Source: Naegleria gruberi (Eukaryota). From it: 64,000 nt of DNA. This document shows positions 3,360 through 40,291 of the stretch, in pieces. The stretch is taken from the NCBI GenBank assembly GCA_000004985.1, contig GG738898.1; one strand, 5' to 3'. The translations under genes and the position numbers were made by a program. The notes beneath the pieces are model-generated. The model was not told where the DNA came from. It worked only from the letters and a program-made list of their open reading frames with translations, and searched no databases. Positions within the stretch are counted from its first letter, which is position 1, and the number at the start of each line of letters is the position of its first letter.

Positions 3360-4706
3360 CTACCAATCAACCTCTTTGTAATTCTTGTATAATTTTCCAT
3401 ACTTGAAACTTCCAGAAAGGATAGGGTGCAGAACTCTGAAGGCAGCATCAAGATCAGTAAGAGGAGGAGCTCTATATGCAGGTAAAGCAGAGGATACCCA
3501 ACCAGTATCTACACTATTCACCAAAATTCCATTTCTAGCATAATATTCGCTGCAACTCCTCGTTAGCATATTTAGACTTGCCTTACTAGTATTGGTTTGA
3601 ATATGACTATCAGATTTCCCACTCGTCTCAAATTGTCCCTCATGAGAAGTGACATTGATTATAAAACTATGCCCAAAACGAACTGAATGATGGATGTCAT
3701 TTTCTTCTAAATCTTGGCTGTCATCATATGATGGTTTCATAATTTCAAACAACTCTGAAGCTAGAATGGTTGGAGAAACGGTATTAATCATTTGAGATTC
3801 TACAATTTCAGTGACGGATACATCAGAAAGCTTCTCATTCCAAGAGTTTGTAGGCCTATAATCGACTTGTTCTCCCCAAATATCTTTTTCACCTTTAGGA
3901 AAGTAATCATAAGTCAATGACGCATCATCTAATCTGGTTTCAGTTGACTTGGTAATTTCAATAGATTTCTCGATAAGGTTTGAATCATTTTCATGAATAA
4001 TTGGCATGGCACTTTCTTCACTTTTGGTCAGGTACTTTTGTTCAGACTTTAACAGTGATTTGTAGTATTCTAGTGGCCGTTTTACAGTCTGGGCAGCATT
4101 GTTAATTAATATATGGATTTGTTTGAAATTCTTCTTGATATATTGAGTGAAATCAATAACTGACTTTCCATCTTTGAGATTTAGTGGGTATATCAATAAT
4201 CTATCGTACCACTCAGAAAAGTCTTTACATTTCTTAAACTTTAACAGAGCGTCAGATGCAAATCTGGTTTCTTTTGTAAAATATATAGTTAAAAATACTT
4301 ACCTAGTAGTAACAATAACTTTCGCACCCAACCTCAACAAAACGAGAGCAGTTTGAAGACCAATCTTGATTCTCCCTCCAGTTACAATGGCTGCCTTATC
4401 ACAAAGAAGATTACTGGGATATGAGTATTCTCTAATTGCGTCATTGAAATGATTACAATGTGAGCACATGGAATGTCTATTATCTAGATGTTTTTCTCCT
4501 CCTCTCCTATTCGTGACACTGTACTTGCGTTGAGTTTTGTAATGAATATATTTACCACATAAATAGCATTTGAAGAAGTTGTACTTTTCTCGTAGATGAC
4601 TCTCAAAATATCCCTCAAGAAAGTAATGAGAGAGATCAACACTGAATAACTGTCTCAAAGATTTTACAAAATAGTGAATATCCTCTGTGGTAATGTGGTG
4701 CTTAAT
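3360..4706 (-). CDS. Short-chain dehydrogenase/reductase (SDR) with a Cys/His-rich N-terminal extension. It has 2 exons, and its 5' end runs into the gap.
   Basis: The Rossmann motif AAIVTGGRIKIGLQTALVLLRLGAKVIVTTR lies at 4303..4400 on the minus strand. The exon ends AG|GTAAGT with the donor at 4302. A 39-nt intron spans 4264..4302 and ends AAACCAG. Exon 2 (3360..4263) continues FASDALLKF...HILINNAAQT (the NNAG motif) and ...NVTSHEG...TSKASLNMLTRS (a degenerate YxxxK region). Upstream of the Rossmann fold there are about 130 aa containing CYLCGKY...CSHCNH. The ORF is open into the N-run at 4707. Confidence 0.75.
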
Positions 4707-7895: not shown

Positions 7896-9008
7896 TTAAG
7901 CCCATCTTAATAAAACCTCTGCTGCTTTCTTTGTTTCTGGATTCTTTATCTTGCTGAATAGGGATCGAGCTTTTTCTAAATCTTTTGGAACTCCTTCCCC
8001 ACCGTTCAAATAAATAGCTCCAAGATTAAAAAGGGAATTATCATTACCTTGATCGGCTGCTTTTTGTAACCAATAAATAGCTTTGGCTTTGTCTTCTTTA
8101 ACTCCTGTTCCCATATTGTACATGGCCCCCAGGTTATTCTGTGCTGATACATCACCTTTGTTAGCCAGTTGCTCGAGCCAGTTCACATCTGTTGAATAAT
8201 CCTTCTTGCTTATCTCATGTAGAGCTGCAATAGAACCTTGAAAACCTTGACTGGCAGCTTTTTCTAACCATTGAATTCCAATTTGATAATCCTGTTTAAC
8301 CCCAATTCCATTAAAGTACATTATTCCAACATTGTGTTGTGAGTGAACATATCCTCCTTCTGCTGATTTCAAGTACCAATCAAAGGCAGTAAATGGGTTC
8401 TTCTCTACTGCATCCCCTCTTGCATAAAAACCACCCAAGTTATATTGAGCTTTTGCATATCCATTATCAGACGCTTTTTTGAACCAATACAATGCCTTTG
8501 ACTTGTCACCAATCGCAAGATATTGGACCCCAAGATTATTCTGTGCTTTTACGTGGTTTTGATTGGCTGATTTTTCAAAAAACTGCAGTGCTATTTCAAT
8601 ATTTTTAGGCACACCCAAACCTTCCTGGTACAAGTAACCCAAATTAAATTGAGCTTCTGAATTATTTTGTTCAGCCGATTTCTCATACCAATAGACAGCT
8701 TTCTTATAATCAATGTCAACTCCAGTTCCATTTTGATAAGCAGCTCCAAGATTATTCTGTGCTATGGAATCTCCTGTATCAGCTTGTAGTTGAAGTAATT
8801 CAAGAGATGATTTGTTGGGTGATGATTTGAAAAAATTCATAAAGCCTAATCCCTTTGATGAAGCATGAAACGATCTAATGTTTAAATTAGTATTAATATT
8901 ATTATTGATTACAGCAAATGGTAATGAACATTCCGAGAATTTTGTCATCAAAGGCTTTGGTAAAAACTTTGAATTCAACAAGAAGGCTGTCTTTTTGATT
9001 GCTCTCAT
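7896..9008 (-). CDS. Sel1-like (TPR-family) repeat protein, about 8 repeats, with an N-terminal presequence-like region
   Basis: An uninterrupted 370-aa ORF with repeated A.(N/Q)NLG.(M/L)Y..G.GV..D..KA..W(Y/F).KAA.QG motifs, for example AQNNLGAAYQNGTGVDIDYKKAVYWYEKSAEQN. The N-terminus MRAIKKTAFLLNSKFLPKPL is basic and hydroxylated. Confidence 0.9.
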   Translation of the reverse strand: MRAIKKTAFLLNSKFLPKPLMTKFSECSLPFAVINNNINTNLNIRSFHASSKGLGFMNFFKSSPNKSSLELLQLQADTGDSIAQNNLGAAYQNGTGVDIDYKKAVYWYEKSAEQNNSEAQFNLGYLYQEGLGVPKNIEIALQFFEKSANQNHVKAQNNLGVQYLAIGDKSKALYWFKKASDNGYAKAQYNLGGFYARGDAVEKNPFTAFDWYLKSAEGGYVHSQHNVGIMYFNGIGVKQDYQIGIQWLEKAASQGFQGSIAALHEISKKDYSTDVNWLEQLANKGDVSAQNNLGAMYNMGTGVKEDKAKAIYWLQKAADQGNDNSLFNLGAIYLNGGEGVPKDLEKARSLFSKIKNPETKKAAEVLLRWA

Positions 9009-23269: not shown

Positions 23270-24897
23270 ATGGCAACTCTTGATGAAGATTCGAGGTGGA
23301 AGGGACATCATTTGTACGGAGACGATTATTTTGATCCAAAGAATGATCCTCCATTGTTGGTAATTCATGTAACGGAGCCTTTGAAAGAAGGTAAGTCTAA
23401 TTTGTGGAACGTTTGGAAATTAATTGATTTAATTATTTAATAATATTTAAATATTTAAATATTGGATGATGGTGAATAGGAAGCGGTTTATCTGCACATA
23501 CAACCTATCTAGTAACAACCACAGTATTTGTAAGTATTAAGCTCTTCTTGATGTACTTAATGTGATCATCAAAGGCTACCAAGAAATCGTACTGTATCAG
23601 AAGGAGATACAAGGAATTTAAGAAACTATTTGAAGAGATGACTAAATTGAGAGGAGTTAACCTTTCATCATTTCCAAAGAAGAAGTTAAAGAGTAAGTTG
23701 TTTATTTTACCGTTACATTGAATTAAATTTAAATATTATTATTAAATAATATGTAATTAAATAATAATTAAAGAATTTGATTATGATATTGTGGAAGAGA
23801 GAAGATTATCTTTTGAAATTATTCTCAGAGAAATGGCAGATCATCACCAAATTGTGATTGCTCCATTATTTAGAAGATTTGTTGAAGTTCCTTTGAATGT
23901 GAATGTTTTCCCTTCGGATTTTAATATTAATTCATATACAGCAAGAAGAAAATCTACAGTCACACCAAGAGATCAACCAAAACATCAAAGTATTAGTAAG
24001 AAAGCTCCACCTCCACCACCTCCTTCATCACAATCATCTGTAAATCAGCTCGACAGTGAACAACAGGTCACTGTTATTATTCCTCCACCACCCCAACAAC
24101 AAACTGTCAAGACAGCTAGTCCACAACCTCCTGTTGAAGCTGTTAGTCCAGTTTCCCCTCAGCAACCACAAACATCTATTCCTGTTCGTACACAACAGGA
24201 ACAACCATCACCTGTTAGTCCAGTGAAAAGAAATTCACAATCACAATTAGAACAGCAACCAGTTCCTGAAGTTGTTGACCCAAACACACCAGTAATTATT
24301 CTTTCACCAACAACAGCACAACAATCACAACAACAATTTTCACAACAGCAACAACAAGCACAACCAACAGTACCTCATCAACAACAACCAGTAGATGTCT
24401 CTACATTCATAGAGGAGATGAGAATGCAACATCAAAATAGACAATCTTTAAAATCCAATCCAACATCACCTGTTGTACAAGTATCTGAACCAGTAAAAGA
24501 ATTGGATGAAGATGTTATTGAGGTTAGACAAGTTCCTTTACCTCCAAAAAGAAAGAGTCAGGAACGAACATCATCACCACAATATGAAAATTCCAAGACT
24601 GATGCAAGAAGATTTACTGAGGAGGAATCAACAGATTATAGTACTAATTTCAGACCTATGGTGGAGGAAGATGAAGCTGTGGATCAAACTGAAGGAGATA
24701 ATAATTTTAATATGGCAATGCTTAACCTGGGAGCACAACCAATCAGAGTACAAGCAAGAATGTCTACTGGTGCACTTCATACACCATATCATCAAATTAA
24801 GAGAGATTCAATTACTTCAAAGTTAGCTGATATTGATCCTGAGCAACAAGTTCAGGAAATTTTGAGACAAATCAAAGGAGAATCTAATGTAGAGTAA
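23270..24897 (+). CDS. PX (phox-homology) domain protein with a Pro/Gln-rich C-terminal region. It has 4 exons.
   Basis: Exons are 23270..23390 (MATLD...PLLVIHVTEPLKE), 23480..23529 (GSGLSAHTTYLVTTTVF), 23575..23692 (ATKKSYCIRRRYKEFKKLFEEMTKLRGVNLSSFPKKKLK) and 23774..24897 (KFDYDIVEERRLSFEIILREMADHHQIVIAPLFRRFVEV...). All three donors are GTAAGT and the acceptors are TAG/AAG. Phases are consistent (1, 0, 1). The intron lengths are 89, 45 and 81 nt. The joined sequence reproduces the PX signature: R(R/K)Y.(E/D)F..L, then the P..K polybasic motif, then the F(D/E)...(I/V)E.RR..LE.(F/Y)L helix. Confidence 0.85.
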
Positions 24898-24909: not shown

Positions 24910-26983
24910 TTATTTATCCCACTTTCCTTGTTGTCTCAACTTGTTAACTTCGTCAACAGCAATTTGTTTGAGAGCAATATAGTCAATCTTGGCGACACGA
25001 TTAAGAGGCATGTCAGAAGTGAGGAAAACAACGTGTGATGGTCTCTTGTAGGCTGCCATTTCATTACAGGCCTTCATAACATCTGAAACAGTGATGGACT
25101 TATCTTCCTTATCCTTCAATTCAATCAAAACAACAATACCCTCAGAGAAGATTTCATGATCAACACCAACAGCACCAACACGAGCAATCTTTTCCTTAAA
25201 TGATTGTTCAATAAATTCTTCAACTTCACCAGGGAAAACTTGATAACCCTTTGGTTTGATGACGAACTTTCTACGAGAAGCAAAGTGCAACCCAAGATTA
25301 TCATAAGAACCAACATCGCCAGTGTACAAGATGAAATCATTTGGATCCTTACTTTCCTTCTTTTCAATGGTGAGTGGAACAATGGTTTGTCTCATTGTTT
25401 CAGCAAGTTCTGGATTTTCATCAGCTCCATGATATCTAGAAAAATTTCAATGTAATATCCAATAGTTAGTTCAATAAAAATTATTTAAGAGCTTGTGTAA
25501 AAAAAATAAATACTAAGCTACAAACCCAACAAAGATTTGAGGACCAGTGAAACAAACTTCACCAACCTCAGAAGCTTTCTTCTCAGCTCCAGCAATATAG
25601 ACGCCATCTACAAGTACAGGTGGTTCACGAACACTGATTGGACACAATGGAGAATCATAACCAATGGATGCCATAATTTCAGAAACACCAACACCGAGTT
25701 GACTGTATGTAACGAAACCAGCAGTTTCAGTCAAACCCAAACCAGAGCAAATTAATGGAGCCATGGTTTGCATCTTTTCTAAAAATTGGGTAGTGACAGC
25801 TTGACCACCATAAATAGCTAATTTGAGACTAGACAAGTCATATTTGGAATAGTTTGGCAATCTCCATTGCAATTGGAAGAGGGCTGGAATTTGACCCAAA
25901 CAATTAACCTTGTACTTTTCAATAGCTTGCAAACTCTTTTCAGCATCGAAAATGTGTAAAATAACACAAGAACCACCGGCATAGATGGTTGTGAAAAATT
26001 GTTCAGTAATGCAACCAACGTGACTTGGTGGCAAATTGCACAACATGACAACTGTTTCGTCCTTTGCCCATGGATCAAAGAAAGCTCTCTTGAGACCAAT
26101 ATTTTGAATAATAATATTAGCATGTGAAAGTTTAGCAGCCTATTTAAACAGTTAACATAATTATCACAAGTATCCAAATAGTAGAATTTTCAAATATTTT
26201 CAAATCAATTTCAATCATTTTCATTATAATAAATTCTCTGTTAAAAAAATCAATTCTCAAATATAACATTACCTTTGGATTACCAGTTGATCCTGTTGTA
26301 AAAATGATAATAGCTGGATCATTAGGACTAACTTGCGATTCATGGTAAGCAACACCACCACCGACCCAGGATTTCAAATAATCAAAAATAAATAAACTCT
26401 TAACGTTGGCAACAAAATCAAGAATGCCAATAGCTCCATCAATAACCAAATCCTTTTCCTTTTGGAATTGAACCCAGTGAGTAATAGTTCCAGTACCAGT
26501 TTCAGTCTTTTTGTAATTCTTCATCAAATTTGAAACCATAGGTCTGAAATCAGCAACTGGAGTTTGACCCAAAAAGAAGTACATTTTTGGACGAATAGCA
26601 TCAAAACACTTGGCAATTTCATGTTCCTTCAATCTCAAATCCAAAGGAGCAATCACAACACCCAATCTCATACAGGCAAATAATAAATAAATATGTTCCT
26701 TCATGAATGGAAGGGAGGTGGCAACAATATCTCCCTTTTTCAATCCACATTCCAATAATTTAGCAGCAAAAGCAGTTGATGACTGTCTCAATGTTGCATA
26801 ACTAATTTCATCTCCGGTATTAAATTCACACAAGGCCGGATTACTCTTCTTTGTATTTGCATGATAATCGACCAAATCGAAAAGTCTCATCAACTTTACA
26901 CGTTCATATTCCTCCACAGCTAATTTTCTAAATTCCGTATCGGCAAATGATGCAAGTCTTTCCTTCTCTGGTTGTGCAGACAT
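24910..26983 (-). CDS. AMP-dependent synthetase/ligase (acyl-CoA synthetase family). It has 3 exons.
   Basis: Exon 1 (26983..26273) ends at the AMP-binding motif IIFTTGSTGNPK, with the donor GTAATG. Intron 1 is 133 nt (26272..26140, ending TAG). Exon 2 (26139..25526) reads AAKLSHANII...GEVCFTGPQIFVG and uses a GG|GTTTGT donor. Intron 2 is 90 nt (25525..25436). Exon 3 (25435..24910) reads YHGADENPELAE...FILYTGDVGSYD...RRKFVIKPKGYQVFPGEVEEFI..., matching the conserved GY...PE.T...GW..TGD.G.....G...i.GR.Kd.I...G and E.E motifs. Confidence 0.85.
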
Positions 26984-27288
26984 TTTTTTATGAGCGTGAA
27001 AACTTCAAAGCCTTCAAAATTACATTAAAAGAGAATTATCAAGCCTAGATCAAGAAGAAGATTCTTGAATTACATGATCACAACAAATAGATTTATTGAG
27101 TGAGGTTTGAAGAAGAAGTTTATTCCGATGGGAAGAATGAAAATTTTCAATGGTTTGTTGTTATTGGTGAACAAGTAGAAGGAGAATTTGAAATATTGAA
27201 TCTTCAAGCATGACTGTAAATTATTTTCTGTTTTTGGCGCCAATTTGACTTATTGAGCAGAGAAAATGGAATTTTTAAATTAAGGCGG

Positions 27289-27340
27289 GAAATGAGGAAT
27301 GGTTCATTGTTAAGAATTGAAATGAGGAATGGTTCATTGT
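27289..27340. repeat. Perfect 22-bp direct repeat (GAAATGAGGAATGGTTCATTGT twice, 30-bp period) in the intergenic region upstream of the acyl-CoA synthetase gene
   Basis: Copies lie at 27289..27310 and 27319..27340, both read directly from the sequence. The repeat sits between the trypsin-like gene's stop (27366) and the synthetase's start (26983). Confidence 0.8.
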
Positions 27341-27365
27341 GTGTATTATTTTTTTATTTACCTAT

Positions 27366-28476
27366 TTAGAGAGCAAAGAGAAAGAGGGCTAAACAAAGAA
27401 AGAGATGGAAAGTTAAGTGAGATGCAATATTCGAAACAGCATGTTTCGTACTAGTGCTGGCATTGTTAGTGGCTCCACCAGTTGTTCCTCCATTTCCATC
27501 GACAACTATTCCATTACCTGTGTAGTAAATTAAATTTGATGAAACCTTACTTGCTATCCAACTCTTGAAATAGGCAACTGAAGTATAAACTCCACGATTG
27601 CTATACGAAGACGAAACTCCACAACCTTCAGGTCCATACGAAACTAAACCACTCACGACCCACAATTTAGTGGTAGCTCCAGAAGTAGTATTCGAGGAAT
27701 TCGATGAACCAGAATTAATTTGAACTTGCATTGCTAAACCACCTCCAGAATCACCTAATTTAGTTTAAATTCGAATAAATTAATTGGAAATAAATGAACT
27801 ACTTACCACTACAAGCATCAATACCATTTCCTGAACCGGCACATATTTGTCCCTTACTCTGACTCATATCTAATCCCAATGAATTACAATACTTGTCATC
27901 GACTAATGGAGCGAGGCCTTTCATCATATAATTGGAAGCTGTTCCAACATTATCATTGGTGAGACCCCATCCAATGATATAGTGAGGTGTTCCAACAGCT
28001 GCATTGGTCATTGGAATCATGGCAATGTTGGCTGTTGGAAGGGAAATGTCAGATGCCAATTCATAAATTGCAACATCGTTCACTACATTGTTTCCATCAT
28101 ATTTTTCATGGTTAGTGATGGATTTTACTTGAACTCTTTGACAAGCACTGTATGTACCAACTTTTGAAGGACAAGAAGATAATGAGTTGGTGCCATACAC
28201 AATGGTCAACTTGGATGGATTAGTCACAGCTCCAGAATCTTCAAAATTACAATGGGCTGCTGTAAGAATGTATTTACTCGCAATAACAGAACCTCCACAT
28301 ATATGTTGCGGAGTAGATGAAGACGAATCTTGATATTGAATCGAAACTAGGAAGGGAAATTCCTGAGGTGATGCTTGAGTGCCTCCCTGAACATGAATAG
28401 AAAATTTCGAACACTGAATTCGAAGAATAAGATTCAGAATTGAATAGATGATAAGAAAAATTGTAACGTTTCTCAT
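27366..28476 (-). CDS. Secreted trypsin-like (S1 family) serine protease. It has 2 exons with a 52-nt intron at 27755..27806.
   Basis: The signal peptide is MRNVTIFLIIYSILNLILRIQCS. The catalytic His is in LTAAHC, the Asp in NDVAIYEL, and the Ser motif is split by the intron. Exon 1 ends ...DACSG, with the donor GTAAGTAG at 27806. The acceptor is AAATTAG and exon 2 starts GDSGGGLAMQVQ... The join is in phase and gives CSGDSGGG. Confidence 0.85.
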
Positions 28477-28825
28477 TGTTTAGTTTAGTGTATTTTTTTA
28501 ATAATGTTCTTCACTATTCGAATCCCTTAAAAAGGAAGGAAAGATGAAGAATTTAAAAAGTAGATACATTGGATATAGTTCTCTTCTTTGAATAGATATT
28601 CCTTTGGAACTTGATTCCTTTCAAATTTACTTCCAATCCTCATTTCTCTTTACTATTATTAGTTATTTCCAATACACCAAATCCTTTTTCAACGAGAGAG
28701 AAAATTCACCAATGTAAGCTAAGGATCCTTTCTAATTTCAAGTCAACCAATTGAAACTAAACATAGAGTTTCTTTACACTTTTGAAAATTAAAAAATAAA
28801 AAGTTTAACAATGAAACTAATCTAT

Positions 28826-30383
28826 TTATTTCTTAATAGCATTCAAATCCAAAGTTCTGGTATTTCTAGTATTCTTAGTGAGCTTACATGGAATAGTATT
28901 TGGAGTAATGTAAGCATTGGTAGTGAACTTTAATGGTGACAAGGTAACACCTGGAACCAAAGATGGAACATAATTATCATAAACCAATTCAACAGTCAAA
29001 GCAGTGTAACCTTGAGGTGGGTTTCTAACCAAAACATGATATTCGTTTGGTTTAGTTTCTTGCAACAAGGTAGAATTCCAAACGTTTGTACCAATAATGT
29101 AAGTTCTGAATTCACGTCCATTTGGATTAGTGGCAGACCACAAGACAACTCTGGATGGTCTATTGTTTTGAATTTTAACCTTGACAATGACACCTTCATC
29201 AACAAATCTGTGAGAGAAGGTAAATCTTGGCATGGTGACACCTGACAATCTGGCAACTTGATAACTCAACAAGACTTGGAAGACATCAGAACCAGCCAAT
29301 GAGTGACCAGTATTTGGAATATATCTAACATACTTATCACCTTCAATACTATCATAACCAAGATCGTTCAATTCTGGGCTGAAGAATTCATCTCCCAAAC
29401 TCAAAACTTGATACTTGGAAATTTGATCCAAACGTGGATAATTGACAGGATCAACAATTTTAGTGAGCTTTTCAAAACCAGTGGTGAACATGTCATTGGT
29501 AACACCAGCAGCAATGTAATCAGCCATTGCAGGAGGCCAATAACAAATGTTATTGTAAGTTCTTTCGAAAACTTCCTTAGTGTGCCAGACTGGAATGACA
29601 GCAGGAACGAGTGAAGTAACTCTGGACTATTAATTATTGTAAAATATTGTAAAGTATTGTAAATATTAATAATTATTGAAAAATGAAACTCTATATACTT
29701 ACATCAACACCAGCAAGTAAAATACTAGACCAACCTCTCTTGGAAGCACCAATAACATTCCATGTAGCAATTTCATAATTTACAGTTGACTTGACAAACT
29801 TGGTAACAACATCCAAAGCAATCTTTGATGCCTTAACCATTGGCAATTGAGTAACATAATTGACATTGGCAGTGTCATTAATAAAACGCTTCCATCCAAA
29901 AGCAATGATAGCATCTTCACTTCTAGAAGCTTGAGTAGGATCAGAGGCATAAGTAATTGGTTGATTAGGAATGTCATAAACAGTGACACCGACAGATTTA
30001 GTGGCATATGAATATGGAGTAATGATGGCATCAACACCAGGTACAGAACCAGTATTAGAACCACCTGTGAAATAGACTGTAGCTTGTGATTTAGTCTTGT
30101 CCAATGAAATTGGTACAGAAACAGTGACATAATTGAACCATGTGGATCTGACACCAACTTCAGCAGGTGTCAAGAAGGATAATGTTGTTACATTTAATAC
30201 ATATACAGTGGCCACTGTTGTTTGAACAGTGGACAATAGGGTGTAGGAGGTGACACTTTCTGGAGAGGCAACATAGTTGGCCAATGCTTGAGTAAAGTCA
30301 ATGTGACTACTGGCACGTGCCATGACAGCAACGGCAAGCATCAAACTGACCAACAAACTGCAAAGAATGGTGGTTGATTTCAT
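28826..30383 (-). CDS. PhoPQ-activated pathogenicity-related (PqaA-like) protein family member, secreted. It has 2 exons with a 76-nt intron at 29627..29702.
   Basis: The signal peptide is MKSTTILCSLLVSLMLAVAV. The ORF is open from 30413, and the ATG is about 30 nt inside. Exon 1 ends ...WNVIGASKRGWSSILLAGVD, with the donor GTAAGT at 29702. The acceptor is TTAATAG at 29627. Exon 2 starts SRVTSLVPAVIPVWHTKEVF... and is in phase. The GASKRGW nucleophile-elbow-like motif and the overall layout recall the PhoPQ_related hydrolase family of bacteria and amoebae. The family call is from memory and is not searchable here. Confidence 0.6.
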
Positions 30384-30985
30384 TTTTGTTTTTTTTTTGA
30401 GTTGGAAGCACAAATTATCGGCAAAAGGGTCTTTAAAATGTGAAATGCCACTTGACAGTTACAGAATTTCCTCACAAAATTGACAAGAGAATCGAATTTT
30501 TATTGGTAACTGACAAACATAAAAGAGCATGTTATCTGGTGATGGGCTGTCAGTAAGTGACACTACATTAACATGGGAAAGAAGTTACACAAAAAGTCAA
30601 GTATACGTAAGGCAAGTGGCATTTGGCTTGTGAAATTATTAGTGATTACTGACAATTTGTTAATATTGGAAGAGAGTCCAGATAAATAATGTAGTATTGG
30701 TTGTAATATTTGCTGTTTTGCTTTTTTTGAAATACTTGCACCATTTCGGTTGTTAAGGTTTCGTATATATTGGTATAAGAATAGCCGAGGATCGCATGTT
30801 TCAATCATTTATCCAGTTCATAGTTTCGTTTATTTTTGGACCAGTTTCCATCTACAATTTTCATTTACAGTACTGACATTGTAATAGGTTTGTAAAATTC
30901 TTTCCAATTTTTCGAATAACTTTTCAATGACATTATTCCACAAAAAAGTGAAACCAAATCAACAATATAATTCAATTTCCAACTT

Positions 30986-32008
30986 CTATTCCATCATATA
31001 TGAAATTCCCTCATATAAAAAGTAAAATCTTTGATATTTTTCATCAAAACTAATACTAGACACAGTTCCTTCTCCCTTATATTCCTTTTCCACTTTCATA
31101 CTTTCTAAATTCATTACACAAATCAGTGAAGAGTTAGAGTTGGGGAAGAGAACTTTTCTGCTTGATGGTTCATAACACAAACACCAAATTGATTGTGTGG
31201 TGCTGAGTTGACTAGCTTCAAATTGGAGGTTGTGAGATAATTTACACTTGAAAAATGATTTTTCTCTTGAGACAATTAAGAATAGATCCAACTCTTTCGA
31301 ATAAATCATACTCATTGGTTTTCCAAGAGTCACACCTCCAAAATCATAAACTACTTTCAGCAAGTTACCATCCAAGGAATCGTACAGTTTCAATCTTTTG
31401 TTATCAGTATCGGCAACAACAATTAAATTTCCCCTAACATTCGAATACTTTCCATTCGACTCGACACATACAACTGATCGACCATATGAAAATCCCTCCT
31501 CAGAATACGAATCATATCTCAATCCTTTAACCCAAATACAGTTAGTTTCCTTTCCAGATTTACTATTCTCAATCCACTCCTTAATATTATACTTGTATAA
31601 TCTTTGATCAGAGCTGAGAAATATTAAATAATCAATAATTTGAGAATTTATATCCACGAAACTTTCCAAACACATTGCCCTCACAGAATAGTATATGGTA
31701 TGAACTAATTTTGTAATTGGATTTCCTCCCTGCAAGTTTCGAATAATATTTCCATCATCATTCAGATAGACAGTTAGTCCATACTGTCCGAAACCAAAAT
31801 TCTCCTCCACAATGATATAATCACCATATGATAACAATATACTAATTCCACCACCACTAGCTTTCTTCGGATTAGTTTCATTTAATTTGATTTTTAAATT
31901 AAATATATCCAATTGCTTATGATGATCGAGACGAAATTTGTCAAATAATTGTGATGATCCGATGGATTGATCGAGTAAGAGAATGAGTTGATCATGATCG
32001 ATCGACAT
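30986..32008 (-). CDS. NHL-repeat (beta-propeller) protein
   Basis: A 340-aa ORF. Segments such as GNLIVVADTDNKRLKLYDSLDGNLLKVVYDFG, and several similar ones, match the NHL repeat consensus (G.i.VaD..N.Ri..fd..G.....fG). Confidence 0.55.
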   Translation of the reverse strand: MSIDHDQLILLLDQSIGSSQLFDKFRLDHHKQLDIFNLKIKLNETNPKKASGGGISILLSYGDYIIVEENFGFGQYGLTVYLNDDGNIIRNLQGGNPITKLVHTIYYSVRAMCLESFVDINSQIIDYLIFLSSDQRLYKYNIKEWIENSKSGKETNCIWVKGLRYDSYSEEGFSYGRSVVCVESNGKYSNVRGNLIVVADTDNKRLKLYDSLDGNLLKVVYDFGGVTLGKPMSMIYSKELDLFLIVSREKSFFKCKLSHNLQFEASQLSTTQSIWCLCYEPSSRKVLFPNSNSSLICVMNLESMKVEKEYKGEGTVSSISFDEKYQRFYFLYEGISYMME

Positions 32009-32386
32009 TTTTTTAATTATTGGAAATACGAAAGTTGTTTGTGTCCAAAATTTCTGAGTGGTTAAACTACAAAGTGAACTATTTACTAGTTTTTCATTAA
32101 CAAATTATTAAGGACTAATTTCGATTTTTCACAACGTTACATGTATTTGTCAACCTGTAACGATATTGAAAACAATATTCGAAAATACATACTGGATACA
32201 TACCATATTTAGTATCTTTCCAACTTTACAAATAAGGTAATTATGATAGTCCATACGAGCGACAGTAACTTTTGTGCATTTTCTATACAATCGTGAGCAG
32301 TAATCAAATATTTGTTTACATAACAACGACATTGTTTTTTCATTTTCGTTGTGTTTAGTCTTGGATAACAAAAGAAATAACAAGAA

Positions 32387-32848
32387 ATGGAACAAGTTAA
32401 AGTTTACAGAAGTGCAGTTATTAATGCGAGTGTGGAGACTGTGTGGCAAGTTGTGAAGAATTTCAACGAGCTTCCAAAGTGGACGGGTGTTGTTTCGGAT
32501 AGTGTATTGGAAGGTGGAATGCAAGATAATTCAATTGGATGTGTGAGAGTTGTTTCTCTGTTGAATCCGAATCCTCAAGATGATAGACCAATTAGAGAAC
32601 AATTAATTGCCTATGATTCAAGAAATCACTCCTTCACATACAAGATTTTAAGTGGACCTAAACCTTTCGAATATTTTAATGAATATTATGCAACAGTAAC
32701 TTTAGTCAAAATTACAGATTCTAATCAGACATTCATTGAGTGGAAATCTGAATTTACCTGTCCACAAGGAAACCAAGAACAATTCGAGAAATTTGCAGGT
32801 GCAGTTTACATGAAGGGAATTAAATCTCTTCAACAACAATTTCCTTAA
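32387..32848 (+). CDS. SRPBCC (Bet v1/START-like, polyketide_cyc2-type) small protein
   Basis: A 153-aa ORF. The N-terminus VYRSAVINASVETVWQVVKNFNELPKW is typical of the SRPBCC ligand-binding fold. The length matches. Confidence 0.6.
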   Translation: MEQVKVYRSAVINASVETVWQVVKNFNELPKWTGVVSDSVLEGGMQDNSIGCVRVVSLLNPNPQDDRPIREQLIAYDSRNHSFTYKILSGPKPFEYFNEYYATVTLVKITDSNQTFIEWKSEFTCPQGNQEQFEKFAGAVYMKGIKSLQQQFP

Positions 32849-32932
32849 ATTGTTACAATAAATTTCAACATTTGAAAAGAAATCTTCAAAATTGGATGAA
32901 AGTATTATTATTTACAATTATTCCAAGTACTT

Positions 32933-33790
32933 TTACTTGCCAAGGACCTTATTCAACACTTCAAGTGTATGTTTCCACACAATTTCTCTATAGTTTTCGG
33001 TATGATTTTTCGTTACACCCTTTGGCTCACCATACTGATCCAATAAGTAGAAACCCTTCCTAATCTTTTCTTCACTCAATGCAGCATTGAAAGTGTACTC
33101 TGCATACTGTTCAGGAGATCTAGCAAGCATAGTTCCAACATTCCATGCCCATCTCAAAGGAGCCCACAATTCACGTCCCCATTGAGTTGCAATGAATCCA
33201 GGATATTGATGCATGAATGCAATATTCTCATTTCCTTCGTCCCTTGATAGAGAATCCATTGCCAAATCATTGTAAAATCCAGAGGCATCTGCTGCATTTT
33301 TCAATGTATAATTCTGTTTTAAATCCAAATCATCCATATGAGTGTAGGAGTGAATTCCAGCTGACAGGACACTCAGAACTTTGACATTTGAATTTTTGGA
33401 TGTAGATCTCAATAAATCCTGTAATTGTCTAATGAACAACATTCTTCCATAATAATGGAGTGCAAGTTTAAATTCAAGACCTTCCTTAGTTTCTGTTCTT
33501 GCTCCCATATTTGCAATTCCTTGAGTGAGCACACAATAATCCAAACGATCATGATTTTTCTTGTACTCCTCACAAACTCTCTCAATGTCCTTCATAAGTG
33601 TTGCATCTACACTAATCATCTCAAATTTACCTTGGGGATTTAACTTTTGCATTTCCTCAATAATTTCCTTCCCTGCCTGCTCACTTCTTCCCATGATGGA
33701 AACATTGATCTTTTGTGAGGCCAATTTAATAGCGAGAGCTCTTCCGATACCAGAGGTTCCTCCCACACAGAGTGCTTGTTTAGTGGCCAT
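32933..33790 (-). CDS. Short-chain dehydrogenase/reductase family oxidoreductase
   Basis: The N-terminus MATKQALCVGGTSGIGRALAIKLASQKINVSIMGRS is a classical TGxxxGxG Rossmann motif. The ORF is 285 aa. Confidence 0.8.
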   Translation of the reverse strand: MATKQALCVGGTSGIGRALAIKLASQKINVSIMGRSEQAGKEIIEEMQKLNPQGKFEMISVDATLMKDIERVCEEYKKNHDRLDYCVLTQGIANMGARTETKEGLEFKLALHYYGRMLFIRQLQDLLRSTSKNSNVKVLSVLSAGIHSYTHMDDLDLKQNYTLKNAADASGFYNDLAMDSLSRDEGNENIAFMHQYPGFIATQWGRELWAPLRWAWNVGTMLARSPEQYAEYTFNAALSEEKIRKGFYLLDQYGEPKGVTKNHTENYREIVWKHTLEVLNKVLGK

Positions 33791-34125
33791 TGTGTTTTCT
33801 TGTTGAATGTTGTCTCGTTTTTTTGTATTATAAAGTATGTGTGCTGAGATAATTTACATTTTGAAACACTACAAATTAATGCGTGCGCGCAAGATTAGGC
33901 AAAAGCAAGGAAAGAAAATGCGTACGAGCATAATCAAATCAATTTGATGGTATTATCAAATATTGAGAAGTATTTCCTCACTTCAGCTATTGTTCAATAT
34001 AGAATTCTATATTTCTTTTTTACAACATTCAAAATCTTTTTCTCCACAGAATACAATACATTACTTATTTCCACACCAACAGTTTCTCCTTCAATTAGTT
34101 TTTGTTCTGATAATCTCAATTAAAC

Positions 34126-35031
34126 CTACTTGTCCAATTGATTAAAATAGTCATCAATCCGTTCATAGGAATTCTCAATGCACCTTGAATAGGCATCATT
34201 ATCCAACAAGCACTTGTCAAACTCTGAATTGAGATTCTTTTCAAAGCAGGTTTGAATTTGTTTGGCACACATTAAACTTCCAATACATGCTTCACACATT
34301 TTACGATTTACAATTCTGTCACTTTCTAGCCATACTTCCCTATCCAATTCTGGTAAGCAATCTCTTTCCACTTGTTTTATCAATTCAGTTCCGTAATCTT
34401 GTTTTCCATTTAGAGCTAGTTGAGATGAATCATAGAAATATTTGAAAGCAATTTTAGGTGGTGACAAGTAAATCTTCTTTGCATTATTAAATAATTGAGA
34501 TACACACTTAGAATTATGCAGTGTCATGTACGAATTGACCAAACTCCTCATTTCCAACGAACGTACTTCCTCTGCATATTCATCATTAAATGGTTTATCA
34601 TCATTTCCTTTGTTTAACTTCATCAAATTAACAAACTTTTCCCAAGTTTCACCTTCAAGACAATCCCAATTTGCCACTTCTTTCCCCACACTCTCAAATT
34701 CCTTCGGAGATAAATCCAATATTTTCTCTCTATTACTCCACGATTTAAAAGCAATTCCAAATTCACTATTCATTGAATGAACAACACATGATTTTAGCAA
34801 AAAGTATAAAATCTCCAACTTGGCTCCATTATTATTTGTATTATTAATTGTATTATTTAATTCTGATGATGATGCTTGTGAAGAATTTAATTGTGAAAGT
34901 TTGTTAAAAAGAGGATTGCATGGGCTGCTTGTGTTTTGCTCGCCATGATTAGTGGATGATAATGCGAATAGCATTTTAAATGTGATACGAGCATCAGTGT
35001 GTGCTTGATTATTTGTTGACATTTTTTTCAA
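34126..35031 (-). CDS. Hypothetical protein (301 aa)
   Basis: An uninterrupted ORF with no recognisable domain. Confidence 0.45.
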   Translation of the reverse strand: MKKMSTNNQAHTDARITFKMLFALSSTNHGEQNTSSPCNPLFNKLSQLNSSQASSSELNNTINNTNNNGAKLEILYFLLKSCVVHSMNSEFGIAFKSWSNREKILDLSPKEFESVGKEVANWDCLEGETWEKFVNLMKLNKGNDDKPFNDEYAEEVRSLEMRSLVNSYMTLHNSKCVSQLFNNAKKIYLSPPKIAFKYFYDSSQLALNGKQDYGTELIKQVERDCLPELDREVWLESDRIVNRKMCEACIGSLMCAKQIQTCFEKNLNSEFDKCLLDNDAYSRCIENSYERIDDYFNQLDK

Positions 35032-35441
35032 TATTTATTGTAAAGATTGAATTACATTTATTGTAATCTTTTATTCTTATGGATTCTGTAACAGTTTGTG
35101 AGCGTCATTAAGAATTAGAAATATTGGTGTGATAATTTTTGAAAACAATCAACACAGTATGGTAAAAACTCAGTTGGAGTGTTTGGAACCAAAAATGATT
35201 AACAATTCACCTATTCCATTATGAAACAAAATTGAAACGTTTCATTTTAGTCAACTATCCATTTTCACTCAACGAATTTCCCAATCCAACATAAAATCCA
35301 CAACAGTTGTTCCTTTTTTGTTAATTTTACATTTATAAACAAACTTTAGTACACAAAACACAATCTTTCAAACATATAAATACCCAACAAACTTCATCCT
35401 CATTCAAATTCAATTCACACATAAAAAACAACTCAAAAACA

Positions 35442-35876
35442 ATGAACAAATTCATCGCTGCTCTGGTAGCAACTCTACTCTTGGCTTCTTGCTTGGTCAA
35501 CTGTCAATACAGCAACAATTATGGTACTAATTATGGTACATCAGGGGGTTCAGGTTCTAACTATGGAGTCACTGGAGGAAATTACAATCAATATGGACAA
35601 AATACTCAATCCTATTTGAATCAAGTGAATGCAGTCAATTCAAATCCATACTCAAGTTATGGATCTTCATATACAGGACCAAGTAGTTATGGAACTAATT
35701 ATGGAAGTGCCTATTCAATGCCATTCTATGGTGGATACGGAGGAGGATATGGAATTCCATGTTATGGTGGATATGGTGGAGGTGTTCCATTCTACGGTGG
35801 ATACGGTGGTTATGGATATGGTGGTTATGGTGGATATGGTGGTGTGGGTTGTGTTGGAGGTGTTAGATGGTGTTAA
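35442..35876 (+). CDS. Secreted Gly/Tyr-rich low-complexity protein
   Basis: The signal peptide is MNKFIAALVATLLLASCLVNC. It is followed by NYG/SYG/GYGG repeats, ending GYGGYGGYGGVGCVGGVRWC. Confidence 0.6.
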   Translation: MNKFIAALVATLLLASCLVNCQYSNNYGTNYGTSGGSGSNYGVTGGNYNQYGQNTQSYLNQVNAVNSNPYSSYGSSYTGPSSYGTNYGSAYSMPFYGGYGGGYGIPCYGGYGGGVPFYGGYGGYGYGGYGGYGGVGCVGGVRWC

Positions 35877-36058
35877 GATCCAAAGAGTGGATGTTTTTCA
35901 TTCACATCCTTAATTTAGTGTTAATATTTAGTGTTTTAATATTTCTAGAGTGAATAAAAATTGATTAAATTTGTTTAAAATATTGTAGAGCTATCTTATT
36001 CGCGTTTGTTTAGGTTACGTTGTAATGAAAAGTTGTCAAATGTCCAAGATCAAAAAAA

Positions 36059-36790
36059 ATGCCATTATTTAAAAGTATTTGTGGAGCTGGTGATGCTGTC
36101 GATGATTTGAAAATGGTGAGAGAACCACCACTTCTGATCAGAGAGTTGTTGATTCATATTGGAAAATTCATGCTGGTCCGAGATTTATTCCACTTTTCAT
36201 GTTGCAATTCCTATTTATTAGAATTGTTTTTTGATCCGAAAGATTATAAGAAACTGTCGAAAGAAAAAAGAAGATTGATAAAGAAAAATCAACTAAATTA
36301 CAAATCAGAACTATTAATTCAAGAATATTCAAAGGAAGAACGAAATGATTTTTCACAAATTCAGTTGGAAATTTGGAAACGTTTAGTTTGTTTCTATTTT
36401 CCATCATTTGATTCGAATTTGAATGTTAAAAATTGGCTGCATGTGATGAGAAGGCGAGTAGAGCACATTACATTGTACAAACCAAGTGCTCTTCCGCTCA
36501 ACCCTGAAGTATCATGCACAGTAGATTTCTCAGTATTTAACAAATTTTTAGAACAAGGACATTTGGATAATTACATGTTGAATGATTCAACTTTTGTGGC
36601 AAATTGTGAATGGATCTATAAGTGCCCTCTGAATTTTTCTCAATTAATGTACTCTGACAGTTTTTTCTGTAAGGAATGTAATAAGAAGGTCTATAGAGTG
36701 AGCTCAGTTGAGGAGTTGAAGGAAAAGAGTGCTTTGGGACAGTGTATTGCATTTGGGGTAGAAGAGCAATTTTATGGAGGATTGATGTAA
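36059..36790 (+). CDS. F-box-like hypothetical protein
   Basis: A 243-aa ORF. The N-terminal PPLLIRELLIHIGKFMLVRDLFHFSCCNSYL is F-box-like. The C-terminal region is Cys-rich (CKECNKKVYRV). Confidence 0.5.
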   Translation: MPLFKSICGAGDAVDDLKMVREPPLLIRELLIHIGKFMLVRDLFHFSCCNSYLLELFFDPKDYKKLSKEKRRLIKKNQLNYKSELLIQEYSKEERNDFSQIQLEIWKRLVCFYFPSFDSNLNVKNWLHVMRRRVEHITLYKPSALPLNPEVSCTVDFSVFNKFLEQGHLDNYMLNDSTFVANCEWIYKCPLNFSQLMYSDSFFCKECNKKVYRVSSVEELKEKSALGQCIAFGVEEQFYGGLM

Positions 36791-36920
36791 TATTTCCAAC
36801 TTGTCCTTAGTGTAAAGTGGTCATTTAAATGGAAAAATAAAATATCATAAATTAAAATGGATTGGGTACCAGTAATTACAACAACCAGTGAGAATGAATA
36901 CCATGATTTAAAAGGAAACG

Positions 36921-36991
36921 GGGACCAGTGGGAATCGAACCCACGGCCTCTCGCACCCAAAGCGAGAATCATACCACTAGACCATGGTCCC
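36921..36991 (-). tRNA. tRNA-Pro (anticodon TGG)
   Basis: The reverse complement GGGACCATGGTCTAGTGGTATGATTCTCGCTTTGGGTGCGAGAGGCCGTGGGTTCGATTCCCACTGGTCCC plus the discriminator C forms a canonical cloverleaf. The anticodon loop is CTTTGGG, and the T-arm is CGTGGG-TTCGATT-CCCAC. Confidence 0.9.
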
Positions 36992-37117
36992 TAACATTAA
37001 ATGTCCATTTTATTTAAAATTCCAGCCTGTAACCGCCAAGTAGTTGAATAAGGTTTTGGACTAGGTCATTATTATCCACGTTTTAAGATATTTGCTTTTT
37101 AAATATTGTAACTACGG

Positions 37118-39305
37118 TTAATAATCAAAGCTCTCAATTAAAATATTCATGGCTGGAACTTTCAACTCTTTCAATATTTCTATCAAACTTTCATTGAATG
37201 GAGTCGGTCCACAAACGTAAACAACCCTTTCCTCAACATCTTTCACCAATTCACTCAACAATTTCATGTCCAATCTTTGGCACTTCACATCTTCCATTGA
37301 AACATCTTGCATTCTTGTAACACAATAATTCAATTGATTGATAATTCCCTTTTCCTTGTACTGATCCAACTCTGACTTGAATGGAATGTCATTTACAAAC
37401 TTTTCACTATGAATCCATTGAATATGAGGTGCATCTTTGATATCGAGAATGGAGTCTTGAATACTGTGAAAAGTTCCACGAATCATGGACATGAATGGAG
37501 TGATTCCGATTCCGCCACTCAGGAAGAGAACTTTCCATTGTAGATTGGAAGAAGTTTCTTGAGATTTCTTTAAGGCGACATGATAGGAAGTTTGAAGTGT
37601 AAAGTTTCCTTCAATTCCCATTAGAAATAGCTTTGTTTCACCTATTTTTGCATCTTGATGAAGCCATGAACTAGTTTTACCCAAACTAATCTTCTTGACC
37701 GATATTTCAAAGTTATTCGTTTCATTGGAAGGTCCACTTTCAATATTCCCATCTTTGGAAGGAGGAATAAGATACATGGCAGACGAAACTGTCCAACTTC
37801 TCATATAAGGATGATCTAAAGAGAGTGTAAATGTAGCATATTGTCCAGGAAGATAGGTAATATTTCTATGACCTTCCAAAATCTCAAATCCAAATGAGGA
37901 AATTTCATCAGTTATTTTTTTCACACTCACCAACTTGGCATGAACAATTTCTCCCAAATGTTTCTCCTTCATTAGTGGGGCTACATTGAAAACTTCCTTC
38001 CTGGATGGATTTAAACTTTCCAAATCATTGGAATCATTCAAGAGTGGATTGTGTGAAGACATGGATATGAAATCCCATTTGAAAGGACATTGATGATTAG
38101 AAACTTTCCACTTTTCAACCTTGAAAACAACTGTACGATCACTACCATCGAATCCGCTTCCTGGTTCTTCCCTCCATGTTACTTGAATATTGCCAGTCAA
38201 TTGGAGAATATGTCCATGATCAAAGTCAATAAAGAGTAAACCAGCAGAGGAGCAATTCTCTGTGTTTCCTAATGTTTGAAACATACCCTTTCCAACATAA
38301 TCACCCCATACTAGAGTGTCTCTGTCAATGATTCTGATAAAGCCAGGTCTTCCTCCTCGATGAGAACCTTAAATAGTTTGAATTGGTAAAGATTCGAATA
38401 GATGAAATAAACTTACAATCAGCTCCTTTTTCTGGGTGTACAGTAGAAATCATCATCGTATCTGCTCCCAGTATGAACTTGATAACATTTTCTGGCATTC
38501 CACCAGTTGAGAAATTATTATAATCTCTAGTTGACTTGCTCCATTCCTCAAATCCAATAATCGATTGAACAGCCCTCTGTTGAATATACTTTGGACAAGT
38601 AGAAAACGCTTCCCTAACCCTAATAGAAAACCCATCTCCACTCAATGGCTCTATAATCTCACCATTCGTTCTGTATCTCTTCCTCGAACATAAATCAAGG
38701 AAATTAATACTCACCAATGAGCCAAGTTGTGAACAAGTTTTCCACATTGGATCATTTTCATTGGGAGATTTGAGAATTTTGATGATTGTACCGTCCTTAC
38801 TAATCTTAATAAGTTGATTGAAATGGGACAAGTCGACCCGTTCGTGATGTTTCGAATTGAGATCTTGAGCACTTGAAACATTGCATGGATCATATAAGGA
38901 ACAGATTAATCGAGAGGTTTGTAATTCTTCTACGGAGGTGGAAACTTGAGCATTTAAGGGAATCCATGGAGAGTCCTTCTCTTGCTCATAGGAAGTCAAC
39001 TCATCTGATTCCAAAGTTGACTGTTTCGAATACATTTCATGTTGTTTAGGAGTTGCCCAAATCGATGAGCACCAACACTCATTAGTTTCCTTATCAAACG
39101 AAGCCACAAACACAACAAATCGTTCCATTAGAAATGAATGAAATTCCTCTGGGACATGATTCGTAATTTTTCTGCTACCCAAATGATTGGCAAACTCGAG
39201 AGTGTGAGCTTTTCTTTGGAAATCCAATTCTCCTTCGTGAAAAACTGATTTTTCTAAAGGTTTCGGTTGAGAAGTGGGTTGGTTAGATGTTGGTTGAGTG
39301 GACAT
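37118..39305 (-). CDS. Two-domain oxidoreductase with an N-terminal PNPOx-like FMN-binding split-barrel region and a C-terminal ferredoxin-reductase-type FAD/NAD(P)-binding module. It has 2 exons with a 49-nt intron at 38368..38416.
   Basis: Exon 1 (39305..38417) ends ...HPEKGAD + T, with the donor GTAAGT at 38416. The acceptor is TTTAAG at 38368. Exon 2 (38367..37118) starts GT to give Cys, then SHRGGRPGFIRIIDRDTLVWGDYVGKGMFQTL... The FNR-type motifs are RSWTVSS (R.YS FAD-binding) and VLFLSGGIGITPFMSMI (GG.G.TP NAD-binding). The N-terminal FLMERFVVFVASFDKETNECW resembles the PNPOx-like barrel. Confidence 0.7.
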
Positions 39306-39620: not shown

Positions 39621-40291
39621 TTGAATTTATTAGAAATTCGGGAGAGTGGTTGTGATGAAGAAACAATATTAAACACAGATTCACAATTTTTACTTGGAAG
39701 AATGTTTGAAAGTGGATATCTAGTAGAAAAATCCATGAAGAAAGCAAACGAATGGTATTCTAAAGCATTACAATCATTTGTTAAACCTGAAAATGAAAAC
39801 CAACCTCACATTCAGTACTATTTAGGAAATATGTGTTACAAAGGAATCATCTTGAAACAATCATATGAAAGGGCATTTAAATGGTTTCAAAAAGCAGCAA
39901 ATGGAAATCATGGAAAATCAATTTACAATTTAGGATTAATGTACTATTTTGGATTGAGAAATCTTATGAAAATGCAGTTGAATATTTTGAAAAAGCTTGT
40001 AATTTTGGAATGTACACAATGTCAAAGTATTACTTGAGTCACATGTATCAGAAAGGTTTAGGTGTGCCAATTTCGAATGAGAAATCGTTACAATTACTTT
40101 ATGAATCAGCGAGTCATGGGTTTGTGCATTCACAACTTCGTTTAGGACCTCGTTATAAGAATGGAGAGGGCATTGAGCAATCTTTCGAATTCTTTCAAAA
40201 ATCTGCCAATCAAGACCATATACAAGCTCAAACCGAGTCGGGAATAATGTTTTATCATGGACAAGGCGTTTTGAGATTATTGAACCACTAA
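39621..40291 (+). CDS. Sel1-like repeat protein interrupted by a 1-nt frameshift near 39950-39960
   Basis: ORF 39621..40037 (...ANEWYSKALQS...SIYNLGLMYYFG) and ORF 39881..40291 in the other frame (IEKSYENAVEYFEKACNFG...HSQLRLGPRYKNGEGIEQSFEFFQKSANQDHIQAQ) together form a continuous Sel1 repeat array. Continuity requires one extra base after ...TATTTTGG. Confidence 0.6.

Follow-up and report, generated by a model that had tools for sequence, protein, structure and literature searches.

A 14-kb interval of the Naegleria gruberi genome with several bacteria-common protein families: probably an ordinary gene-dense stretch

The interval described here spans positions 24,910 to 39,305 of the window, by which we mean the whole 64,000-nucleotide stretch of Naegleria gruberi contig GG738898.1 that was analysed, and encodes an acyl-CoA synthetase, an S1 (trypsin-like) serine protease, a PhoPQ_related protein, an "NHL-like" protein, an SRPBCC protein, a short-chain dehydrogenase/reductase (SDR), a Gly/Tyr-rich protein and a PNPOx-FNR oxidoreductase, together with two further proteins and a tRNA. 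In the best explanation, to which we assign a probability of about 0.8, it is an ordinary gene-dense piece of the genome, whose unrelated genes became neighbours by accident of rearrangement and each work alone. This explanation builds on the observed gene models and families, on the long residency of the genes, on the lack of conserved linkage in a second Naegleria species and on eukaryote-type sister groups for two of the genes. The interval itself is already known, as published and annotated nuclear DNA, and its gene mix is not shown to exceed chance. A few bacterial-type families within 14 kb are unremarkable because the Naegleria genome is rich in transferred genes and such genes are usually single: homology to bacterial genes is reported for about 2.7% of the genes of N. 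gruberi (PMC9928731), many metabolic genes of heterolobosean genomes were transferred and afterwards acquired introns and signal peptides (PMC11589745), and transferred genes in protists usually stand alone among vertically inherited ones (PMC4082486).

Gene order in Naegleria lovaniensis provides the first line of evidence. Along its locus L001 the order is RhoGAP, a 512-residue protein, a kinase, a 240-residue protein, PhoPQ_related, PX, LOG, a 189-residue protein and the synthetase, and by tblastx these genes map only to 44.7–52.2 kb and 23.3–30.4 kb of the window; the same comparison finds on L001 neither the protease nor anything from 30.5–44.5 kb. The neighbourhood is a composite of a backbone kept in N. 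lovaniensis (the PX gene, synthetase, PhoPQ_related, RhoGAP, kinase and 512-residue gene) and a block of about 14 kb at 30.5–44.5 kb, whose traceable members lie on other N. lovaniensis contigs. This block holds the NHL-like, SRPBCC, SDR, Gly/Tyr-rich, tRNA, PNPOx-FNR, Sel1 and UBA5 genes and three family-less genes (two in the interval, and a 643-residue open reading frame at 41.7–43.7 kb). The N. lovaniensis orthologue of PNPOx-FNR (58% identical) is found on contig PYSW02000035 among C2, Ank, HisKA and calpain genes, and its SRPBCC homologue on PYSW02000010 with topoisomerase I and EF-Ts on either side. Linkage is thus kept only between the synthetase and PhoPQ_related, not across the set as in a conserved cluster, and the backbone has survived despite the distance between the two species.

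The sequence-only reading had seen in the interval a possible co-regulated neighbourhood. Spelled out, one small molecule would be the common target of the synthetase, SRPBCC protein, SDR and PNPOx-FNR enzyme, or the three secreted proteins would be used jointly, with coordination through shared chromatin or promoters; we regard this as improbable. The spacing is certainly tight, with gaps of 12–602 bp, a head-to-head arrangement of the NHL-like and SRPBCC genes (378 bp between them) and a tail-to-tail one of the SRPBCC and SDR genes (84 bp), and it is conceivable that a single pathway would employ a CoA ligase, a reductase, an SRPBCC protein that binds a ligand and a flavoprotein. Nevertheless, linkage in N. 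lovaniensis is lost except for one pair, three family-less genes and the tRNA are interleaved, and Pfam and NCBIfam reveal no synthase, scaffold enzyme, transporter or regulator among the ten proteins, hence nothing that would mark a single pathway. Upstream motifs are shared at chance level: the best 7-mer is found upstream of 7 of the 10 genes (mean in shuffles, 6.7), the best 8-mer upstream of 5 (mean 4.5), and control genes do equally well. A bacterial contig in which an SRPBCC gene lies beside dehydrogenase genes (L091) offers some precedent for the pairing, but its SDR shows no similarity to the Naegleria SDR at E<1e-3. On this basis we infer that the genes are not co-regulated. Rather less probable still is a lineage-specific variant, in which a rearrangement particular to N. 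gruberi set the block of about 14 kb (NHL-like gene to UBA5 and the 643-residue frame) beside the synthetase, protease and PhoPQ_related genes and so created a co-expressed neighbourhood, with the CoA ligase, PNPOx-FNR, the atypical SDR and an SRPBCC protein of bacterial origin all working on the same small molecule, a lipid or an aromatic compound, and the three secreted proteins deployed alongside.

The second line of evidence concerns descent, and bears on the proposal that the interval is a set of anciently transferred genes. In its strongest form, that a bacterial secondary-metabolite or virulence locus was acquired as one block and later given introns and signal peptides, this is the least credible of the readings weighed. 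PF10142 (the PhoPQ_related family), SRPBCC, SDR, ANL and PNPOx-FNR are all abundant in bacteria, PF10142 occurring in more than 600 bacterial species genomes, mainly of Verrucomicrobiota, Acidobacteriota and Planctomycetota, and the heterolobosean genes cited above are a model for the later gain of introns and signal peptides. The best bacterial identity to the Naegleria PhoPQ_related protein, however, is only 31–37%. In a neighbour-joining tree that includes 39 sampled bacterial genome sequences and does not include Dictyostelium, the Naegleria clade (100%) joins first the sequences P0013 and P0015 (93%) and then P0014 and P0016 (98%), and all 39 bacterial sequences fall outside. The contigs of P0014 and P0015 are called eukaryote-type because of their U-box, dynamin, NGP1, PGM1, Arf/Ras and WD40 genes; those of P0013 and P0016 have too few neighbours to call but, from their low GC content (35–38%) and sparse gene calls, may be eukaryotic. 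The assembly of the P0019 contig was taken as a bacterial metagenome-assembled genome (MAG).

Much the same picture emerges for PNPOx-FNR. Its best matches outside Naegleria are 35–46% identical, one of them labelled "Actinobacteria MAG". In a neighbour-joining tree of limited sample it belongs to a clade (99%) of 17 proteins that have no 2Fe-2S domain, among them that of the red alga Gracilariopsis and one of contig L004; the bacterial homologues, 24–29% identical, have an extra 2Fe-2S or MOSC domain. L004 (JAFDWD010000007.1 of GCA_018268695.1, 35% GC) was deposited as an "Actinobacteria bacterium" MAG and carries HMG-box, BRCT, RING-finger and split HSP70/HYOU1 genes, because of which we take it for a mis-binned eukaryotic (protist) contig. 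As sampled here, the nearest relatives of both proteins outside the genus are eukaryote-type, not bacterial. Further evidence against a block transfer is that every NCBIfam match in the interval falls far below its curated cut-off, so that no bacterial equivalog name can be assigned, that the composition is native, that the members are dispersed in N. lovaniensis, that eukaryotic-type UBA5 and Sel1 genes lie inside the block, and that protist transferred genes are usually single (PMC4082486).

The SRPBCC protein is different. Polyketide_cyc2 (PF10604) matches it from end to end (E=3e-20, 73.4 bits against a cut-off of 27.4; residues 3–151 on profile positions 1–140 of 142), and an exhaustive protein search returns N. 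lovaniensis (43% identity) and an N. gruberi paralogue (39%), followed directly by bacterial proteins at 31–44%, namely an Acidobacteriia/Methyloceanibacter/Acetobacteraceae cluster and YndB-type proteins. Bacterial proteins at 40–44% are as similar to it as the other Naegleria copies at 39–43%. Among solved structures the Bacillus XoxI-type proteins come first (6e-15) and plant members reach only about 1e-6 to 1e-3. A fusion of SRPBCC with alcohol dehydrogenase (ADH) is 43% identical in the exhaustive search and 40% by tblastn, and is encoded on L091 (ENA ERZ25039469 contig_222554), whose GC content of 68% and LysR, SBP_bac_5 and TctC genes mark a bacterial contig. L091 has an SRPBCC gene and the SRPBCC–ADH fusion, with the SDR one gene on; the SRPBCC domains are 37–40% identical to that of Naegleria. 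A bacterial origin of the SRPBCC gene, judged from these similarities, is plausible.

Separate ancient transfers from bacteria to eukaryotes of single members, SRPBCC above all, with adjacency arising by chance, would be compatible with the best explanation, and we hold them to be a serious possibility at slightly less than even odds. PF10142, mostly bacterial and patchy among eukaryotes, fits such a history as well. Against this, any transfer of PhoPQ_related or PNPOx-FNR would be older than the eukaryote-type clades in which they sit; most of the top SRPBCC matches are metagenome proteins, among which closer eukaryotic relatives may be hidden; and the SRPBCC neighbour-joining tree (146 sequences, 143 columns) has distances saturated near 1.0, so that no topology was drawn from it. 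Of the bacterial sister groups looked for by the sequence-only reading, none appears for PhoPQ_related and PNPOx-FNR, which group with eukaryote-type sequences (98–99% bootstrap); the SRPBCC gene leans towards one by its similarities, and the reading of the interval as a set of transferred genes is not supported.

Several observations weigh against the reading of an ordinary stretch. The trees are neighbour-joining trees on limited samples. The distance between N. gruberi and N. lovaniensis (PMC9928731) makes loss of linkage weak evidence on its own, and the synthetase and PhoPQ_related genes are only a few kb apart in both species, which could exceed residual microsynteny. The close tail-to-tail pair of SRPBCC and SDR, the association of an SRPBCC gene (40% identical) with SDR and ADH genes on the bacterial contig, and the somewhat high fraction of proteins with signal-like N-termini (3 of 10) point the same way.

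The genes of the interval are long-term residents of the nuclear genome and not contamination, because they have GT–AG introns, native codon usage and intron positions conserved in N. lovaniensis; in this the sequence-only reading was right. Its statement that every gene is interrupted was too broad. Four genes (synthetase, protease, PhoPQ_related and PNPOx-FNR), which we spliced by hand, contain five introns in all (two in the synthetase, one in each of the others), all GT–AG, 49–133 nt long and 14–24% GC, and the other four listed genes are uninterrupted: the NHL-like, SRPBCC and SDR frames equal annotated single-exon proteins at every residue, and the Gly/Tyr-rich frame runs from ATG to stop without a break behind a TATAAATA-like box. 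The spliced synthetase and PNPOx-FNR models equal their GenBank proteins exactly. For the protease and PhoPQ_related models the protein collection searched contains no identical entry, and their public annotation may be different or missing. Intron positions are common to both species in the synthetase (after ..GNPK) and in PNPOx-FNR; synthetase intron 2 is absent from the N. lovaniensis orthologue, and the PhoPQ_related introns of the two species are 10 codons apart. The N. lovaniensis synthetase orthologue (L001, 15333–17507) has more introns than the N. gruberi gene, and an 11-nt micro-exon (GAAATCCAAAG) falls within its P-loop motif. These extra introns and the 10-codon offset suggest intron turnover within Naegleria.

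Composition agrees with residency. GC at third codon positions is 0.22–0.34 in the ten interval genes and 0.26–0.35 in flanking kinase, UBA5, RhoGAP and C2 genes; the synonymous-codon log-likelihood per codon is −0.89 to −1.06 against −0.88 to −1.07 in flanking genes; and the codon usage of all ten lies within the flanking range (UBA5, two kinases, RhoGAP, C2, Sel1 and eEF1A-like). A recent transfer or contamination was rejected on the introns, native codon usage and conserved intron positions, and an endogenous viral insertion at 30.5–44.5 kb on native composition and the UBA5, Sel1 and tRNA genes inside.

The ends of the interval are exact, 24,910 being the last stop-codon base of the synthetase gene and 39,305 the first ATG base of the PNPOx-FNR gene, both on the minus strand. 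All eight listed genes exist, and the sequence-only reading had omitted two more protein genes (of 298 and 243 residues) and the tRNA-Pro(TGG) gene, making ten protein genes and a tRNA with 79% of the interval genic. Its family assignments stand for seven of the eight genes, the PNPOx half of PNPOx-FNR being a weak match, and fall for the NHL protein. Exons and introns are listed in Table 1.

Table 1. Positions of the genes, exons and introns of the interval in the window
Feature	Position	Strand	Basis or remark
Acyl-CoA synthetase (ANL superfamily), 616 aa, 3 exons	24910..26983	-	XP_002672377 / NAEGRDRAFT_72555, exact
Synthetase exons	26983-26273, 26139-25526, 25435-24910	-	
Synthetase intron 1, 133 nt, GT..AG	26140..26272	-	19% GC, after ..GNPK
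Synthetase intron 2, 90 nt, GT..AG	25436..25525	-	
S1 (trypsin-like) serine protease, 352 aa, 2 exons	27366..28476	-	spliced model, Pfam
Protease intron, 52 nt	27755-27806	-	directly 5' of GDSGG
PhoPQ_related (PF10142) predicted secreted alpha/beta-hydrolase-fold protein, 493 aa, 2 exons	28826..30383	-	spliced model, Pfam; signal-like N-terminus
PhoPQ_related intron, 76 nt	29627-29702	-	
Orphan 340-aa protein ("NHL propeller" of the sequence-only reading), single exon	30986..32008	-	XP_002672379, exact
SRPBCC / Polyketide_cyc2 protein, 153 aa, single exon	32387..32848	+	XP_002672324, exact
Atypical SDR, 285 aa, single exon	32933..33790	-	XP_002672380, exact
298-aa gene of unknown function	34126..35022	-	open reading frame; no Pfam or NCBIfam match
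Gly/Tyr-rich protein, 144 aa, signal-like N-terminus	35442..35876	+	uninterrupted open reading frame, composition
243-aa gene of unknown function	36059..36790	+	XP_002672326, exact
tRNA-Pro (anticodon TGG)	36920..36991	-	
PNPOx-like + FNR flavoprotein oxidoreductase, 712 aa, 2 exons	37118..39305	-	XP_002672382 / NAEGRDRAFT_72563, exact
PNPOx-FNR intron, 49 nt	38368-38416	-	

The individual biochemical roles we infer from family. The spliced synthetase matches the Pfam families AMP-binding (E=7e-57, 193.4 bits against a cut-off of 29.9) and AMP-binding_C (26.2 against 24.5) and has the core motifs TTGSTGNPK (A3), GLTE (A5), YTGD (A7) and KIDY (with the A10 lysine), and with both domains and these motifs it belongs to the ANL superfamily. 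It would activate a carboxylic acid; NCBIfam, in which every equivalog falls far below its cut-off, does not assign a substrate. Trypsin (PF00089) matches the protease with E=6e-35 (121.5 bits against 20.6), and alignment with chymotrypsin C shows a complete catalytic triad of His (AAHC), Asp (DVAI) and Ser (GDSGG), placing it in family S1. By a hydropathy heuristic the N-terminus of the protease is signal-like and its last 17 residues form a hydrophobic tail resembling a glycosylphosphatidylinositol-anchor signal, so that it may be anchored at the cell surface rather than freely secreted. A Ser/Asn/Thr-rich insertion follows immediately past GDSGG. A metagenome-contig scan, which is blind to distant relatives, gave no relative of the protease. 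The same heuristic, and nothing else, gives signal-like N-termini to the PhoPQ_related and Gly/Tyr-rich proteins, and to that extent the three secreted proteins of the sequence-only reading are borne out.

In the SDR, adh_short (E=1.7e-15, 57.4 bits against 26.6) spans only the N-terminal 122 of 195 profile positions. The Rossmann TGxxxGxG pattern is present, with the cofactor motif GTSGIG at residues 11–16; no YxxxK occurs in the expected region of about 140–170, the sole one being at residue 253. We class the SDR as atypical because YxxxK is missing from its usual place and only the N-terminal half matches SDR profiles; it is only distantly similar to any solved SDR. The best solved relatives of the synthetase, the protease and the SDR are a mixture of eukaryotic and bacterial proteins. 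The SRPBCC protein would bind a hydrophobic ligand. The mature part of the Gly/Tyr-rich protein is 31% Gly and 20% Tyr, with GYGG repeats and a Cys-rich end. Such a composition is typical of extracellular proteins cross-linked via tyrosine, and the protein is probably an extracellular structural one; a role in the cyst wall would be speculation.

PF10142 covers the PhoPQ_related protein in full (E=3e-77, 260 bits, profile positions 1–367 of 367), and the protein would be a secreted member of the AprA family with an alpha/beta-hydrolase fold. The structure was predicted for the N. lovaniensis orthologue (65% identical): the model, with a predicted local distance difference test score (pLDDT) of 92, is an alpha/beta hydrolase nearest the CE7 acetyl-xylan esterases, with target-normalised template-modelling scores of 0.6–0.66. 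Ser214, Asp306 and His335 are near-invariant, and together with the model this set suggests an enzyme rather than a signal alone. No solved structure is detectable by sequence for PF10142. One N. lovaniensis paralogue carries the UniRef name "Autocrine proliferation repressor".

PNPOx-FNR would be a flavin-dependent NAD(P)H oxidoreductase. Its FNR module is clear, with FAD_binding_6 at 23.5 bits (cut-off 21.1), NAD_binding_1 at 36.5 (cut-off 22) and the motifs RSWT, GGIGITP and CGP. PNPOx_N matches only weakly, at 20.8 bits (cut-off 28.1), as does TIGR04025 (39.5 against 170), and homologues at 27–40% identity carry PF01243, the HRGG motif being present in the Naegleria protein. No solved structure is detectable by sequence.

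The "NHL-repeat propeller" is not borne out. On its 340 residues the Pfam NHL profile finds, instead of several repeats, a single 16-residue stretch scoring 10.6 bits (E=0.65; cut-off 20); a single-sequence AlphaFold model has a pLDDT of 32 and is uninformative. The only relative detectable in a word-indexed protein search is a 96%-identical allelic copy, and none was found among viral contigs by a scan that is blind to distant relatives. By these searches it is an orphan gene. This second NHL-like copy (96%) and a second SRPBCC copy (100%) lie together on a 2,725-bp N. gruberi contig (EFC35428/EFC35427), the simplest explanation of which is an alternative haplotype that stayed in the assembly.

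The window is nuclear DNA of N. gruberi NEG-M, at least six of its encoded proteins being identical to GenBank entries on one 310,422-bp scaffold; in the interval, the proteins marked exact in Table 1 match residue for residue, and so does UBA5 (XP_002672383) just beyond it. GC content is about 34% across the window, and an assembly gap (a run of N) at 1–795 accounts for the low GC of 1–2000. The rest of the window is equally gene-dense, with enzymes mixed among signalling genes and another SDR at 3360–4196, and the flanking content is typically eukaryotic: kinases, G-alpha, Rad51-like, LRR, ABC, eEF1A-like, Sel1 and UBA5. Of the two Sel1-repeat genes, at 39621–40291 (+) and 7896–9008 (−), the one next to the interval is split across two overlapping frames, probably by an intron inside it. 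On the other side, a Gln/Pro-rich open reading frame at 23306–24897 (+) is the 3' part of a PX-domain gene and ends 12 bp from the synthetase stop; in N. lovaniensis, too, the PX orthologue lies near the synthetase and PhoPQ_related genes. Rfam and tandem-repeat scans added nothing to the gene picture.

Had the cluster reading been true, the interval would have been a rare example among heterolobosean amoebae of clustered metabolic or secretory genes, or of a joint transfer of several genes from bacteria. Its practical value is instead negative knowledge: in a genome as compact and transfer-rich as that of Naegleria, genes of bacteria-common families are expected to turn up side by side, and only conserved linkage or co-expression would justify calling such neighbours a cluster. 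Minor gains are an AprA-family, putatively secreted protein with an esterase-like predicted fold (in the orthologue), a possibly surface-anchored S1 protease and a bacterial-like SRPBCC protein.

Compared with known systems, the interval resembles fungal, plant and bacterial metabolic gene clusters in bringing CoA ligase, SDR, SRPBCC and flavoprotein reductase genes together within 14 kb. Unlike them, it contains no core enzyme, transporter or pathway regulator, its linkage is not conserved in N. lovaniensis, no upstream motif is shared, and unrelated genes and a tRNA are interleaved. With the co-transferred bacterial cluster of Trichomonas vaginalis (PMC4082486) the likeness is that of neighbouring genes of bacteria-common families in a protist; the differences are the lack of a donor-like bacterial locus, low bacterial identities, native composition and eukaryote-type sister groups for 2 of the 3 interval genes examined.

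Single genes bear closer comparison. The bacterial PNPOx-FNR-2Fe2S and MOSC oxidoreductases have the same order of a PNPOx-like region and an FNR module, and the same RSWT, GGIGITP, CGP and HRGG motifs, whereas the Naegleria protein is without the C-terminal 2Fe-2S domain (PF00111), has an insert of about 80 residues at 87–168 and clusters (99%) with proteins of about 600 residues that likewise have no 2Fe-2S domain. In Dictyostelium, the PF10142-family protein AprA is a secreted autocrine proliferation repressor and chemorepellent (PMC4920372), and a paralogue is present on secreted multilamellar bodies (PMC12785797). The Naegleria protein shares with AprA the full PF10142 profile and a signal-like N-terminus; the signalling role is known for Dictyostelium alone, the link to Naegleria being one of family membership, and the fold predicted for the N. 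lovaniensis orthologue is esterase-like, with the Ser/Asp/His set kept. The Bacillus XoxI/YndB-type SRPBCC proteins (PDB 3cnw and 3f08) are the best PDB matches of the Naegleria protein (6e-15 and 3e-14) and are, like it, about 150 residues long with Polyketide_cyc2 end to end; they differ from it in that identity is only about 35–44% and the Naegleria gene has paralogues in its genus.

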